Shown: positions 2,588-5,758 of the stretch, in pieces
Layout: the number at the start of each line of letters is the position of its first letter
How positions within the stretch are numbered: position 1 is the first letter of the stretch
DNA from: a virus
Taxonomy: Duplodnaviria; Heunggongvirae; Uroviricota; Caudoviricetes
DNA: 34,628 bases
Virus record (IMG/VR): IMGVR_UViG_2558860472_000005
Coordinates: 1 to 34,628 of that record
Direction: 5' to 3' (one strand)
Made by a program: the position numbers and the translations under genes
Notes under the pieces: model-generated
What the model saw: the letters and a program-made list of their open reading frames with translations, nothing else
The model's database searches: none
What the model was told of the DNA's origin: nothing

Positions 2588-2946
2588 TTCTTAGTCTCCG
2601 GTGCTTTCGGCATTACTGCCCAGTGAGTGATATTGACATTTTCAAGGTCCCCGACCTGAAATGTCCGCTGCCATTCTCCGGTTTCTTTTTGCCCCCATGT
2701 GTACCAGAGAGAACGCCAGCCAATCAGCCAGCCTTCTCCACTAGCATCAAATAACAGAACACTTTCATTTGCTGGTGGCAGTTCAGCTGACACTGGTATT
2801 ATTTTGTTTTCCAGTGCCGCACATTTAGCTTCAAGCGCGTTGAATTTACGTACTAGGTACTCAGCATTTGTTTCGTTCACTTTCAGATCTCGCGGTACAC
2901 ATTTCCCGCGAAGAAACCCTTCCATTTCGAAAACATTCATGCGCAT
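2584..2946 (-). CDS. DUF551-like prophage protein (YfdS-like)
   Basis: 120 aa. The Trp-rich C-terminal part (GWLIGWRSLWYTWGQ ... ITHWAVMP) recalls DUF551 proteins of enterobacterial prophages. This is from memory, not a search. Confidence 0.55.
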   Translation of the reverse strand: MRMNVFEMEGFLRGKCVPRDLKVNETNAEYLVRKFNALEAKCAALENKIIPVSAELPPANESVLLFDASGEGWLIGWRSLWYTWGQKETGEWQRTFQVGDLENVNITHWAVMPKAPETKK

Positions 2947-3473
2947 TTGCGTAACTCCGATAACTCGTTAAAACGTTCCATAAACATCCCGTAGGCCTGG
3001 CCCGGTGCCAGTGGAATCACGTTGAACATCTCTGTTGCCGGGATGCCTTCCAGTACAGGCCAGAAAGAGCCATCATCAAGCCCGAGATCGCGGCGTTCGG
3101 TTGCCAGCATGATGAGATCGGCATATTTCACAGGCGTGCTCATAACCGGGGGTAACCCGTATTTTTCACGGATTACGGCGTCTATTTTTTCTTCCATCCG
3201 TTTATAGTCAGGAAGAAGGCGTTTCAGTGGAGCCGGGATGTCCTGGCAATACGCTTCTGTTGCATCATGCATTAACGCTTCAAAAGCAAATTCCTGCGGT
3301 ACCAGCTGGCTGCAAAGCACCGCATGTTGGGCGACGCTGTAGAAGTGTGAAAGATGTCCTGCAAAGCGACAGATATTTGAAAGGGAAACCGCGATATCGT
3401 TAATAACGATGTCGTCTTTATTTATCCTGTCATAATAAAAATGCTTCCCGGAAAAAGTTTTAATAAATGACAT
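2937..3473 (-). CDS. HD-domain phosphohydrolase (YfdR-like 5'-nucleotidase)
   Basis: The likely start is ATG at 3473 (MSFIKTFSG...), preceded by GGAGAA. It carries the H...HD metal-binding pattern (HLSHFYSVAQHAV ... ALMHDATEAY). Confidence 0.75.
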   Translation of the reverse strand: MSFIKTFSGKHFYYDRINKDDIVINDIAVSLSNICRFAGHLSHFYSVAQHAVLCSQLVPQEFAFEALMHDATEAYCQDIPAPLKRLLPDYKRMEEKIDAVIREKYGLPPVMSTPVKYADLIMLATERRDLGLDDGSFWPVLEGIPATEMFNVIPLAPGQAYGMFMERFNELSELRKCA

Positions 3474-4017
3474 TTTGTTCTCCACGTATATGCGCTGCAC
3501 CGCGCTGAATTCGGGTAAAAGGAAGCCCTCACCGTCCGGCGATTATTGAGTCAATTACATTTCCATAAATGCCCCCGTAGGGGCGGTTAGTTTCTCCACA
3601 AAACAGAGAAGAACACCTGTGGTGGCAGCCGCCCGGATGGATTGGGTTATGAGCCCGTCGTCCGATGATGCTCTTCTCTGTTTTGTAAAAAGGACGGTAC
3701 CAGCCGGAAGCAAGGGTACAAGCTGGTACCGCCAAGACAACACACAGCATAAAGTTGTGGTGCCGGGTGCCTCCCGGTGCCTGGCGAAGGTTGTACACCA
3801 GACGGGTGGGTATCCACAGAAGGTCGACTGTCAGCCTCAACCTTAACCCGCGTGCGCTGAGCCGCATTCACCACAACGCTAAGGATTCTCTCTGGTTGAA
3901 AATACTTAGCTGTTATGTGCCTGCTTTTAGCCACATCAGGCGAGGTGGACCTGGTTATTCCCCAACAACAAGGATTCGGTATAATCTGGATATCCCAACA
4001 ACAGGTAGGAAGGAAAT
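3474..4017. other. ORF-free, GC-rich, stem-rich intergenic element (candidate structured RNA or cis-regulatory leader; strand unknown)
   Basis: Only mutually overlapping, Cys/Trp/Arg/Pro-rich ORFs occur, on both strands. Perfect long-range complementarities: 3600-3612/3672-3684 (13 bp), 3695-3704/3722-3731 (10 bp) and 3787-3793/3838-3844 (7 bp). Hairpins at 3571-3584, 3763-3777 and 3806-3817. Confidence 0.35.
3980..3985 (+). promoter_or_regulatory. Candidate -10 element (TATAAT) for the plus-strand accessory operon
   Basis: Perfect TATAAT lies 33 nt upstream of the mini-ORF A start. The -35 is weak. It is bracketed by direct repeats CCCAACAACA(A)GG at 3961-3973 and 3994-4005. Confidence 0.4.
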
Positions 4018-4101
4018 ATGTACGTAGATAGCAATGAAAAATTTCATGTTCCGGTAAATCAGAGACCAGCACCGATCCCTGAGCCGAAACCTGAAATGTA
4101 A
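4018..4101 (+). CDS. Proline-rich mini-ORF A (27 aa: MYVDSNEKFHVPVNQRPAPIPEPKPEM)
   Basis: Strong SD AGGAAGGA (4007-4014). The stop lies 10 nt before the next ATG. It shares H-[VI]-P-x-[KN]-x-R-P motif with mini-ORFs B and C, encoded with different synonymous codons. Confidence 0.45.
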   Translation: MYVDSNEKFHVPVNQRPAPIPEPKPEM

Positions 4102-4111
4102 GGGAATAGAG

Positions 4112-4591
4112 ATGACTCGAGACGATCTAGCATTCGATATTCATTATTCTTTCTTTCTTGAGAAAATGAATTACACCCTTTTAAATCGGATAGACAAGAG
4201 CATAACTCTTGTTCTCATTGTCTTGGGCTTTTCTGTTTTTGCGCCATATAGCAATATGTTTATTTTTGGCGCATCTGTAGCTATTTTGTCGGTGCTTCAA
4301 TTGGTATACCAATTTGGGCAGGAAGCTGGCTTATCAAAGGAACAGATGCGACAGTATAAAAGGTTGATTGTTGAGTTTTCCTCCCTTTCTGATGACGAAC
4401 TACGCACTCGGTTTTTAAAGGTTCAAGACGCTGATAGTAATCCATGGAGATCTTTACAAGATGCTGCGTTCAAACGGACCTGTATTGCGCTGGGACGTGT
4501 TGATGAGTCAGAAATATCATTCATGCATAGCGTTATCGCATGGTTTGCTGGAGATTTGCCTCGGTCAAAAAGGTGTAATAATGACAAATAG
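4112..4591 (+). CDS. Hypothetical 2-TM membrane protein (SLATT-like or superinfection-exclusion-like architecture)
   Basis: 159 aa. A central hydrophobic hairpin (ITLVLIVLGFSVFAPY / MFIFGASVAILSVLQLVYQF) is followed by a helical soluble tail. Low G+C. It lies on the strand opposite PL. Confidence 0.7.
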   Translation: MTRDDLAFDIHYSFFLEKMNYTLLNRIDKSITLVLIVLGFSVFAPYSNMFIFGASVAILSVLQLVYQFGQEAGLSKEQMRQYKRLIVEFSSLSDDELRTRFLKVQDADSNPWRSLQDAAFKRTCIALGRVDESEISFMHSVIAWFAGDLPRSKRCNNDK

Positions 4592-4697
4592 AATTCCCAT
4601 AATCCCTAACCATGTACCTCCAAAGCCCAGACCACCATCACCAAAGTCACACAGGCTTTATGAGTATGAATTAATAATGGATTCTATATTGAGATGA
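4581..4697 (+). CDS. Proline-rich mini-ORF B (38 aa: MTNRIPIIPNHVPPKPRPPSPKSHRLYEYELIMDSILR)
   Basis: The ATG overlaps the end of the 2-TM gene by 11 nt, with SD AAGGTG 5 nt upstream. It carries the shared motif HVPPKPRPPSP. Confidence 0.45.
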   Translation: MTNRIPIIPNHVPPKPRPPSPKSHRLYEYELIMDSILR

Positions 4698-4701
4698 CCA
4701 A

Positions 4702-4791
4702 ATGAATGCATTTATATATACATGGAAAGAGGATCATATACCCTTAAAACCTCGTCCTTCACCGCCAGAACCGAAGCCAAAATCCCGTTAA
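4702..4791 (+). CDS. Proline-rich mini-ORF C (29 aa: MNAFIYTWKEDHIPLKPRPSPPEPKPKSR)
   Basis: Starts 4 nt after the stop of B, with a weak SD. It carries the shared motif HIPLKPRPSPPEPKP. A terminator follows. Confidence 0.4.
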   Translation: MNAFIYTWKEDHIPLKPRPSPPEPKPKSR

Positions 4792-4809
4792 GTGTTGGGG
4801 ATCTCCAGA

Positions 4810-4822
4810 TTGTTAAAGAGCG
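4810..4822 (-). promoter_or_regulatory. boxA-like antitermination element (CGCTCTTTAACAA) in the PL leader
   Basis: The minus-strand sequence CGCUCUUUAACAA matches rrn boxA UGCUCUUUAACAA at 12 of 13 positions and contains the lambda boxA core CGCUCUU. It lies about 100 nt downstream of the predicted PL start, directly 3' of a hairpin (4824-4841). Confidence 0.5.
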
Positions 4823-4823
4823 A

Positions 4824-4850
4824 AGCGTCCTATAGGGCGCTTTTTTGTTG
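4824..4850 (+). terminator. Rho-independent terminator of the plus-strand accessory operon
   Basis: 7-bp stem AGCGUCC/GGGCGCU (one G-U pair), UAUA loop, then a U6 tract. Confidence 0.75.
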
Positions 4851-4931
4851 CTAACGAATCATCCTGGACTTCATATGCCCCAGGCGGCTACTTCGTGGGC
4901 GTCCTGCCTGTTCGTTGTTTCGCTTGGGTAC

Positions 4932-4959
4932 ATTATGTATCTCAAAGGTACATTGTCAA
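4932..4959 (-). promoter_or_regulatory. PL-like early-left promoter
   Basis: Minus strand: TTGACA (4959-4954), 16-nt spacer, CATAAT (4937-4932). The spacer is occupied by an operator-like palindrome. Confidence 0.6.
4935..4953. promoter_or_regulatory. Operator OL (ATGTACC-N5-GATACAT)
   Basis: Same 7-5-7 architecture and half-site (TGTACC/GGTACA) as the two palindromes beside cro. Confidence 0.55.
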
Positions 4960-4961
4960 GT

Positions 4962-4986
4962 ATAAAAAAACCTGCCGAAGCAGGTT
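4962..4986 (-). terminator. Rho-independent terminator downstream of cI
   Basis: Minus strand: AACCUGC-UUCG-GCAGGUU followed by U7, beginning 13 nt after the cI stop. Confidence 0.8.
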
Positions 4987-4998
4987 CATAAACATTGA

Positions 4999-5673
4999 TT
5001 AGGCTTTGATTTTGTATCTTCTTGGTTTTCCTGAGAAAATCACTGTACCAATTATAGAGCAATTACCGTTGATCTTAATGTAAGGCTCAGGCCAGTTTGG
5101 GTTTAACGCTTTGAGATAACGCTGTGTCCCATCTTCTATCAACCTTTTGAAGGTGGTTTCACCTGTATCGTGCATCAATGCAATAACGTCGTCACCGTGG
5201 CAGGCAGGTACTTCAGGATCGACAAAAATCATGTCTCCCGGGCGGTACTCATCAATCATTGAATCACCTATCACCCGCAAGATATAAGTCATTTCCCCAC
5301 AGGGTACAGGGCAGGGATACGTTTCTGCTGTGCTCAAATCAACCTCAGAATATCCAACTTCTTTCCATGCTCCGGCCTGTACCCATGATATGACAGGGAC
5401 TAATGTGATTTGTTTATTAGTGATTGAAACATCAGGTTTTTTTGTGATGTTCGTTGTCTGGTGTTCTTGATCGAGCCATCCGACAGGCAGGTCGAAACAT
5501 CTTTCGATGTGTCGTGCCATGCTGTCACCGATATTTTTAGTAGCACCATCTCCCATAAACCTGCTGGTCTGGGTTGGCTCGCGATCAATCATAGTGGCAA
5601 AGGAAGAATTCCCGCCAACACCATCTCTCAGTTTTCTGGCGTTAGACCGCCGGATGTCATGGATTGTTTTCAT
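4999..5673 (-). CDS. CI-type repressor, LexA-like S24 peptidase family (e14 CohE/YmfK-like)
   Basis: 224 aa with an N-terminal HTH region. The C-terminal part has self-cleavage motifs (VISWVQAGAW, RVIGDSM, ..FKRL..). It is divergent from the cro-like gene. Confidence 0.9.
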   Translation of the reverse strand: MKTIHDIRRSNARKLRDGVGGNSSFATMIDREPTQTSRFMGDGATKNIGDSMARHIERCFDLPVGWLDQEHQTTNITKKPDVSITNKQITLVPVISWVQAGAWKEVGYSEVDLSTAETYPCPVPCGEMTYILRVIGDSMIDEYRPGDMIFVDPEVPACHGDDVIALMHDTGETTFKRLIEDGTQRYLKALNPNWPEPYIKINGNCSIIGTVIFSGKPRRYKIKA

Positions 5674-5688
5674 AACGAAATTAAAACC

Positions 5689-5709
5689 CTTGTACCGTTA
5701 AGGTACAAG
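5689..5709. promoter_or_regulatory. Operator OR-a (CTTGTACC-GTTAA-GGTACAAG, perfect 8-bp arms)
   Basis: Perfect inverted repeat between the cI start and the PR -35. Confidence 0.65.
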
Positions 5710-5713
5710 TATC

Positions 5714-5741
5714 TTGAAGGTTCATTTTAATCATGTAATAT
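5714..5741 (+). promoter_or_regulatory. PR-like early-right promoter
   Basis: TTGAAG (5714-5719), 16-nt spacer, TAATAT (5736-5741). Operator OR-b overlaps the -10 and the start site. Confidence 0.55.
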
Positions 5742-5758
5742 GTACACCGGAGGTACAT
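5740..5758. promoter_or_regulatory. Operator OR-b (ATGTACA-CCGGA-GGTACAT)
   Basis: A 7-5-7 imperfect palindrome with the same half-site, overlapping the PR -10 and the cro SD. Confidence 0.6.

Follow-up and report, generated by a model that had tools for sequence, protein, structure and literature searches.

Conserved proline-rich mini-proteins encoded beside a two-transmembrane protein gene in enterobacterial prophages

Organization of the cassette and coding evidence for the mini-ORFs

The window analysed in this work, a stretch of 34,628 nucleotides that makes up the IMG/VR record IMGVR_UViG_2558860472_000005, is an e14/SfV-type lambdoid prophage of Escherichia coli. On its plus strand it carries a cassette of about 0.9 kb in which the gene of a small protein with two predicted transmembrane (TM) segments, referred to here as the 2TM protein, is surrounded by three very short open reading frames (mini-ORFs) encoding proline-rich peptides. 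Mini-ORF A (4018..4101; 27 aa, MYVDSNEKFHVPVNQRPAPIPEPKPEM), the upstream partner type, is preceded by a Shine-Dalgarno (SD) sequence, AGGAAGGA, read from the sequence at 4007..4014 of the plus strand, and its stop codon lies 10 nt upstream of the ATG of the 2TM gene (4112..4591), whose product, WP_000196297.1, is a predicted inner-membrane protein of 159 aa. Mini-ORF B (4581..4697; 38 aa, MTNRIPIIPNHVPPKPRPPSPKSHRLYEYELIMDSILR) has the SD AAGGTG and overlaps the 3' end of the 2TM gene by 11 nt in the +1 frame, and mini-ORF C (4702..4791; 29 aa, MNAFIYTWKEDHIPLKPRPSPPEPKPKSR) starts 4 nt past the stop of B. The group ends at an intrinsic terminator on the same strand (4822..4850; a 9-bp stem with a 4-nt loop at 4822-4843, followed by a run of T), which was called by a terminator scan and is kept in relatives together with the preceding CCAGATTGTTAAAGAGC.

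The 2TM gene is the only one annotated by PGAP in the cassette region, as a 'hypothetical protein', and all three peptides were missed by standard annotation. They share a motif: the regular expression H[VILM]P.{1,4}[RK]P.{0,2}P gave three matches in the six-frame translation of the 34.6-kb window, and these are A, B and C. The motif is written with different synonymous codons in the three ORFs (cat gtt ccg, cat gta cct and cat ata ccc for His-Val/Ile-Pro; aga cca, aga cca and cgt cct for Arg-Pro). A first-pass annotation, made by reading the letters of the window, had delimited the four ORFs and the terminator and listed these codons; its ORF coordinates, translations, spacing and codon differences proved correct.

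A total of 124 distinct cassettes were analysed, at loci from IMG/VR, GTDB genomes, GenBank phages and assemblies; the genome-contig scan yielded three loci, and a third homologue search, made with a distant alignment, brought in few further proteins. Fifty-six distinct cassettes belonged to the clade whose 2TM proteins are at least 40% identical to that of the window. Within this clade, an upstream proline-rich ORF of the A type was found in 55 of the 56, ending 6-18 nt (mostly 8) before the 2TM ATG and having the consensus ..YEE[KR]H[MLV]P..[QK][RK]P.{1,2}PP(K)P and, behind it, a charged tail that is acidic in most cases. At least one downstream ORF bearing the motif was present in 54 cassettes. 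The B type, of 21-25 aa (MS[KR]P..H[VI]PP[KRH]PRPP.P..), overlaps the 2TM stop by 8-29 nt or starts at most 15 nt from it, and a C type, 50-80 nt further on, was found in 29 of the 56 cassettes, each of which has two downstream motifs. Every mini-ORF begins with ATG, rarely GTG or TTG, behind an SD of the AGGA or GGAG type, which for A is placed 6-9 nt ahead of the ATG in every relative. From one locus to the next the mini-ORFs have no constant frame with respect to the 2TM gene, although their peptides are conserved.

Selection was assessed by pooled Nei-Gojobori estimates, using the two other frames of the same DNA as controls. The ratio of nonsynonymous to synonymous divergence (dN/dS) was 0.155 for B, with proportions of nonsynonymous and synonymous differences (pN and pS) of 0.29 and 0.72, and 0.185 for C (pN 0.29, pS 0.70); the other frames gave 1.4-2.1 and 1.3-1.7, respectively. 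For A, pN was 0.26 and pS 0.75 (saturated, dN/dS not computable), and the other frames gave 1.2-1.4. Low dN/dS in the proposed frames is the signature expected of translated genes under purifying selection. The early suggestion that the three peptides are translated paralogues selected at the peptide level was thus borne out, with ratios of 0.15-0.19 (B and C) where the control frames exceeded 1.2, in frames that vary and behind conserved SD and ATG.

The occurrence of the motif was well beyond chance. Across 70 related loci the regular expression matched 151 times inside cassettes and not once in 309 kb of flanks. A DNA pattern for H-[VI]-P-P-x-P-R-P-P, run over 2.9 million viral contigs, returned 90 sites, 42 of which adjoin a 2TM homologue, the remaining 48 being high-GC chance matches in long or startless frames; the A-type DNA pattern gave 38 sites in IMG/VR, 37 adjoining a 2TM homologue and one at the edge of a stored stretch. 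From this exclusive co-occurrence it is nearly certain that the peptides and the 2TM protein constitute one conserved functional module, as the first-pass annotation had held.

That the mini-ORFs might be untranslated chance frames within a DNA repeat or RNA element rich in proline codons could be argued from the fact that PGAP leaves them unannotated in all E. coli genomes examined. Some depositors, on the other hand, did annotate them (QPB11296.1, UKL15127.1 and a 33-aa gene in locus L168), and the conservation of the peptides in varying frames, the restriction of dN/dS values far below 1 to the proposed frames, the conserved ATG and SD, and the flanks free of motif matches leave this explanation with virtually no probability. 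Since the selection and frame data exclude chance ORFs, the comparison shows the mini-ORFs to be real, conserved coding sequences. They define, together with their membrane partner, a conserved family of unannotated mini-proteins in enterobacterial prophages, and offer a clean comparative-genomics example in which very short ORFs are validated by frame-independent conservation.

Depth of the association and rearrangements of the motif

The module was found in prophages of E. coli, Salmonella, Klebsiella, Enterobacter, Pectobacterium, Yersinia, Providencia and others. In subfamilies of 30-35% identity, carried by different phages, one upstream mini-ORF lies 5-11 nt before the 2TM start in most loci, with no B or C: MSDSDNFHVLPRPAPAPKPEPGQDKK in Fels-2 and many P2-like prophages, ..DDFHVLHKPAPPEEKDDEE in Yersinia phage vB_YenM_42.18 and ..NDHMPSRLIKTPPPPPPAKTGGNGKK in Providencia PSTNGR2lys and its relatives. 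The B and C types are confined to the lambdoid clade. This distribution led us to consider A plus the 2TM protein as the ancient unit, and B and C as additions of the lambdoid clade. The three mini-ORFs that the first-pass annotation took as the make-up of the module are therefore a true description of the window and a feature of its clade, the ancient core having a single upstream mini-ORF.

Two of these distant loci carry questionable gene calls. At the Fels-2 locus (NC_010463.1, 2336-2935) the deposited gene STM2733.1 is annotated on the minus strand, and the plus strand contains an unannotated 152-aa 2TM homologue (tblastn E = 5e-23) with its mini-ORF, also unannotated; the STM2733.1 call is probably on the wrong strand. 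Gene 008 of Yersinia phage vB_YenM_42.18 presents the same strand problem.

Rearranged forms of the motif were also found. In three Pectobacterium assemblies B is fused in frame onto the C-terminus of the 2TM protein (..GDLPTEKESKMAKPPVDGHIPPRPRPPAPPKAQN) without loss of the upstream A. A single ORF comprises both B and C in loci L003, L056/57 and L066, and the motif is duplicated inside A in L061/64/65 and inside B in L027. These fusions and duplications imply that the motif is a portable unit, for which any arrangement is tolerated provided that it is translated near the 2TM protein or attached to it. The window itself holds a rearranged derivative of B and C; compared with L022, L018 and L026 it has additional segments of about 14 nt and about 22 nt. 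Its B has lost the usual stop and reads into the ancestral C start (..MDSILR-stop), which gives a long tail specific to the window lineage, and its C begins at a new ATG after the insertion, with a remodelled N-terminus. Both motif-coding parts remain open.

In the overlap of the 2TM gene and B (4566-4583) the codons of the 2TM frame are TCA AAA AGG, with lysine encoded inside a run of A immediately ahead of a rare AGG. From 4461 onwards the +1 frame stays open into B, and slippage into it at this place would yield a 2TM-B fusion akin to the natural one of Pectobacterium. Programmed frameshifting was rejected as a general link between the two, since L022 and other relatives have a +1 frame that closes shortly ahead of the start codon of B. 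The slippery site is not conserved in relatives and therefore probably incidental.

The arrangement of the mini-ORFs is also relevant to the idea that they are translational regulators in cis, stalling at proline stretches and thereby setting the amount of 2TM protein according to elongation factor P (EF-P), prolyl-tRNA or proline supply, with released peptides that have no function. Leader ORFs rich in proline codons are an established device, as in mgtL and mgtP of Salmonella, and the A types resemble the ORFs of SecM, ApdA/ApdP and mgtL/mgtP in being short, located right upstream of a membrane-protein gene and, in many cases, provided with R-P-P or A-P-P motifs. Many of them contain strong EF-P-dependent motifs (EPPPK, IPPPPPK, TPPPPPPA, APPE); however, consecutive prolines are absent from A of the window (RPAPIPEPKPE) and from the whole Fels-2 clade (RPAPAPKPEP), so that the stalling motifs pointed out in the first-pass annotation did not hold as a conserved feature. 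The RAPP/RAGP sequences of the known arrest peptides are missing as well, and the distance from motif to stop ranges from 9 to 17 codons. Even though the close packing of the genes would suit coupling in cis (5-18 nt between A and the 2TM ATG, an overlap of B with the 2TM stop, and 4 nt between B and C), two of the three ORFs of the window, B and C, come after the single long gene and have nothing left to regulate. In the alignments the His, the aliphatic residue and the Lys/Arg are conserved as well as the prolines, and motif units occur fused to one another and to the 2TM protein. The A/2TM junction, which contains the ribosome-binding site of the 2TM gene, is no more structured than shuffled sequences (z = -0.22), and a hairpin sequestering that site was accordingly rejected; a structured 5' leader was rejected as well, the region being less stable than its shuffles (z = +1.05). 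Altogether, we regard regulation in cis as quite unlikely.

The 2TM protein, its peptides and known systems

Close homologues of the 2TM protein form 78 clusters in Enterobacterales, and a full profile search brought the family to 427 representatives (50% clustering), all of about 150-170 aa. The AlphaFold2 model of the window protein (pLDDT 76.5) has two long helices, 3-42 and 50-87, and short C-terminal helices, a layout in which a long N-terminal helix continues into TM1 and is followed by TM2 and a helical C-terminal domain. The codons of the two TM helices (about residues 30-47 and 49-69, placed from the sequence and the secondary structure of the model) occupy 4199..4318 of the plus strand. 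Given the short uncharged loop between them, APYSNM, both termini are predicted to be cytoplasmic by the positive-inside rule.

Neither the 2TM protein nor the three peptides had a match in Pfam, NCBIfam or PADLOC, toxin-antitoxin family models of these collections included, and no PDB sequence matched the 2TM protein. About 60 diverse relatives of the 2TM protein were likewise devoid of matches, their Pfam searches giving only noise. Matches in PHROGs were to the unnamed families 6315 and 23697, and our literature search found no description of a 2TM protein with mini-proteins. A clear match of the 159-aa protein to a characterised family that acts alone was looked for in Pfam, NCBIfam and PADLOC, and none was found. 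The module thus matches no described system in these databases, the PDB sequences or the literature, in agreement with the first-pass annotation, which had recognised none.

The same annotation had likened the 2TM protein to SLATT (SMODS and SLOG-associating 2TM) proteins, the membrane effectors of CBASS, reverse-transcriptase and other conflict systems. The structural part of this likeness gained weak support: Foldseek searches of BFVD, made with the window model and independently with that of the Pectobacterium fusion, placed SLATT-annotated giant-virus proteins on top, with E values (0.03-0.8) below significance. The two would have in common a small protein built on a TM hairpin with cytoplasmic helices on either side, both occur in mobile elements, and a few UniRef entries of the 2TM family bear the SLATT name. 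The profile part, in contrast, failed, since none of Pfam SLATT_1 to SLATT_6 matched the window protein at E<=1, none matched 53 diverse members of the family at E<=0.1, and none matched seven more, including UniRef entries named SLATT, at E<=10. Unlike SLATT systems, the inspected loci contain no nucleotide-generating or sensor partner (no SMODS, SLOG, TIR or reverse-transcriptase gene; only phage early genes, cI and the mini-ORFs adjoin the 2TM gene), and mini-protein partners are unreported for SLATT. On the basis of these models the architecture of the 2TM protein may be called SLATT-like, weakly but reproducibly.

A second likeness is to type II-like toxin-antitoxin pairs, in which a small upstream gene for a labile antitoxin is translationally coupled to the toxin gene. 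The spacing between A and the 2TM gene corresponds to this in 55 of the 56 cassettes and in most distant clades, where the small upstream ORF lies 5-18 nt from the candidate effector; occasional fusion of partner to effector and residence in mobile elements are further common points. The candidate antitoxins differ in being proline-rich peptides of 21-35 aa devoid of a DNA-binding domain, with up to three paralogues around the putative effector.

The peptides have also been compared with insect-type proline-rich antimicrobials, and it could be proposed that they are the effectors, phage-made analogues acting on the ribosomal exit tunnel, release factors or DnaK, with the 2TM protein as exporter, immunity factor or helper. 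The resemblance is found in B, which is cationic (net charge of about +4, KPRPP) and whose core H-V-P-P-K-P-R-P-P-A-P-K-G recalls segments of oncocin (Y-L-P-R-P-R-P-P) and apidaecin (P-R-P-P-H-P-R-L); like the insect and mammalian peptides oncocin, apidaecin and Bac7, they are short and present a PRPP core behind an aromatic residue or His and then an aliphatic one, and many B peptides stop 3-5 residues past PRPP, as apidaecin does. However, C is about neutral and the near-universal, ancestral A type is acidic or neutral (e.g. MSDDYEERHMPPFKRPEPPPKPDDSD), A-type peptides being the only ones in the P2-like and Providencia clades. This weakened the comparison drawn in the first-pass annotation, which appears mostly compositional and limited to a low-complexity segment. 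Unlike antimicrobials secreted as precursors, which act from outside via SbmA, the peptides (21-38 aa) are made in the bacterium from their own ATG with no hydrophobic leader, signal sequence or pro-sequence, and no exporter is present; they are strictly linked to a membrane protein, and the fusion of B to its C-terminus would be more in keeping with a tethered ligand than with a freely acting inhibitor of the ribosome. An antimicrobial function is, in our opinion, very improbable.

A resemblance to the (EP)n-(KP)n spacer of TonB had been noted as well. PEPKP occurs in A and C, and PIPEPKPE of A is close to PIPEPPKE of E. coli TonB. This spacer is periplasmic and belongs to an anchored protein of 239 aa, whereas the peptides of the window, of 27-38 aa, lack an anchor, a signal sequence and a C-terminal domain, and we attribute the likeness to low complexity.

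The insertion slot and a possible role in the lysogen

The cassette occupies a slot of variable content, bordered by a conserved flank on one side and the cI terminator on the other. Among 5,426 complete E. coli genomes, 2,809 share the flanks (3581-3948 and 4916-5000) and 52 have the full region; about 106 genomes (about 2%) have the cassette or a variant at 67-72% identity, and the cassette region is 100% identical in E. coli strain MLI107 and others. In other prophages the same slot holds e14 ymfI/ymfJ, an ECs1072-family gene or SfV orf33. The cassette thus has the attributes of a phage moron: a promoter-like block and a terminator of its own, variable presence between collinear genomes and an orientation independent of its flanks. 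In E. coli ET479 (NZ_CP100950.1, 1501-2623) it is disrupted by an IS5-family element, ISKpn26, inserted after the first 66 nt of mini-ORF A.

Two elements of the slot are shared with other cargo. At the left edge of the cassette lies a pseudoknot-like inverted-repeat element (3921..3948, in plus-strand coordinates) in which stem 1, GCCTG..CAGGC, is interleaved with stem 2, CCAC..GTGG. It may be an RNA element, an insulator or a recombination site, on either strand. In lambdoid, Fels-2, Yersinia and Providencia cassettes it stands upstream of A and shows compensatory changes, and it also precedes e14 ymfI, ECs1072 and SfV cargo; stem 1 is 95.8% paired over 19 variants, including swaps of U-A to G-C, a value reached by none of 500 shuffles. 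Rfam had no match for this element, nor any at the gathering threshold in the window or in seven related loci. The second is the promoter/leader block (3960..4003, plus strand), in which repeats of CCCCAACAAC(A) at 3960-3970 and 3994-4003 stand on either side of a putative -10 hexamer, TATAAT (3980-3985). Among cassettes of 45-100% 2TM identity this block is much better conserved than the coding region, and the sequence ATTCCCCAACAACAAGGATTCGGT(A)TAATCTGGATATCCCCAACAAC (window 3950-4010; locus L253, 1440-1520) is found near-unchanged before ECs1072-family cargo in the same slot. Being common to different cargo, the block would be an exchangeable expression platform. Its ACAAGGAT resembles a consensus for CsrA binding.

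As the first-pass annotation had stated, the cassette is self-contained and opposed to the early-left promoter (PL). The promoter scan placed a PL-type sequence, TTGACA-16-CATAAT (11 of 12 matches), at 4959-4932 of the minus strand, directed into the cassette. Two operator-like TGTAY-N7-GTACA sites (OL; 4916-4932 and 4936-4952) overlap it and match the three of the same kind between cI and cro (OR; 5691-5707, 5708-5724 and 5741-5757), which led us to consider it an operator-controlled early-left promoter firing antisense into the cassette. In the four backbones inspected (the e14/SfV type of the window, Fels-2, Yersinia vB_YenM_42.18 and Providencia PSTNGR2lys) the 2TM gene is antisense to the surrounding early genes in every case. 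Such a consistent placement suits a gene expressed in the lysogen and silenced in the lytic cycle, as expected of a product that harms the phage's own growth.

From this architecture the cassette would most plausibly act as a lysogen-expressed exclusion or suicide module. The specific form that we favour, tentatively and at somewhat less than even confidence, is a SLATT-like membrane effector held in check by bound proline-rich mini-proteins and shut off on induction by antisense transcription from PL, or from Pe in P2-like phages. According to this proposal the prophage would express the cassette, a self-contained moron operon, while lysogenic, and the mini-proteins would be partner subunits of a small inner-membrane protein. 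In an extended polyproline-II conformation, they might bind its cytoplasmic C-terminal region and keep it inactive, in the manner of a labile, probably short-lived antitoxin. When a superinfecting phage halts host gene expression, or the peptides are otherwise removed, the freed 2TM protein would oligomerise and permeabilise the membrane, aborting the infection. On prophage induction, transcription across the cassette from PL or Pe would silence it, and the prophage's own lytic cycle would therefore not be poisoned.

In support of this idea, there are hints of a binding of the peptides to the 2TM protein. One is the natural 2TM-B fusion of the three Pectobacterium assemblies, in whose AlphaFold2 model the pLDDT is 47 in the linker (151-160) and recovers over the proline motif (161-180), first to 60 and then to 78. 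Another is an anticorrelation in net charge between the C-terminal eight residues of A and the 2TM tail beyond its GDLP motif (Spearman -0.71, 51 distinct pairs), which includes at least three clade-level switches. The B-C fusions and the duplications of the motif inside single peptides suit a modular ligand rather than a position-dependent element in cis. The PL with its cI-type operators, aimed into the cassette, was counted for expression in the lysogen and self-silencing, and the predicted TM hairpin with cytoplasmic termini, together with structural matches dominated by SLATT, for a membrane effector.

Several of our observations weigh against the proposal. Besides the structural matches below significance and the absence of SLATT profiles among the members searched, PADLOC-DB v2 gave no family for the 2TM protein or any of the peptides at E<=1, and there is consequently no guilt by association with known defence genes. 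The TATAAT hexamer pointed out in the first-pass annotation is indeed present, but it has no recognisable -35, was not called by the consensus promoter scan and arose through a 1-nt insertion peculiar to the window lineage; relatives have GTTAAT or GATAAT in its place. The tail of the fusion model is covered by no other alignment row, and its docking is suggested by pLDDT alone. The charge anticorrelation is phylogenetically uncorrected, and the 2TM tail is partly constrained by the overlapping SD and start of B. Finally, distant members of the family lack any proline-rich mini-ORF (L187-189, L249-250 and the E. coli P0250 type, of 21% identity), which implies that the 2TM protein can exist alone.

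The same context of a moron slot, own promoter and terminator, and antisense position in early operons would also be in keeping with a lysogenic conversion that does not kill, either superinfection exclusion at DNA entry or a change of envelope physiology, in which the peptides are cofactors of assembly or stability. Small inner-membrane exclusion proteins are common in phages (P22 SieA, T4 Imm, HK97 gp15), and no known defence genes are linked to the cassette in PADLOC. However, its consistent antisense placement in early lytic operons suggests harm to the phage's own lytic growth, which is more typical of suicide-type effectors, and the fold resembles, weakly, the pore-type effectors of SLATT. 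We consider a non-killing role unlikely.

Returning to the membrane effector checked by its peptides, close precedents are the prophage exclusion or abortive-infection modules P22 SieB/Esc and lambda RexA/RexB, which also lie in the lysogen immunity region by cI and PL and combine a membrane effector with a small product thought to restrain it. No sequence or fold relationship to them was found. Whereas Esc is made in frame from within sieB, the partners here are separate proline-rich ORFs, and the cassette is convergent with cI and PL, not co-transcribed with cI.

A broader claim, which we hold to be doubtful, is that the module represents a new class of phage two-component membrane system, in which up to three paralogous polyproline-II mini-proteins of 21-35 aa tether or gate a minimal SLATT-like pore, forming an abortive-infection or addiction switch turned off by antisense transcription from PL or Pe; the cationic B/C types might in addition be the first bacterial or phage counterparts of eukaryotic proline-rich antimicrobial peptides. 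If the cassette is indeed an exclusion or suicide system, the gating of a minimal 2TM protein by a proline-rich peptide would be a new effector-regulator logic in phage defence. The cassette, of about 0.9 kb, is small enough to be tested easily by experiment.

The other genes placed around the slot are, on the minus strand, the integrase (920-2104), a YfdR-like HD phosphohydrolase (2937-3500) and the LexA-type repressor ymfK/cI (4999-5673); cro (ymfT) runs from 5740. In the flank between the phosphohydrolase gene and the cassette, positions 3684-3907 of the minus strand gave a full-length, sub-threshold match to Rfam STnc100 (RF02076; 39.6 bits vs a gathering score of 47, E = 9e-7). It falls within the 370-bp flank kept in about half of the complete E. 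coli genomes, which is called ymfH in K-12 and 'frameshifted hypothetical protein' elsewhere. STnc100 and PasD are described as related prophage small RNAs in a 2026 preprint (10.64898/2026.05.13.724894).

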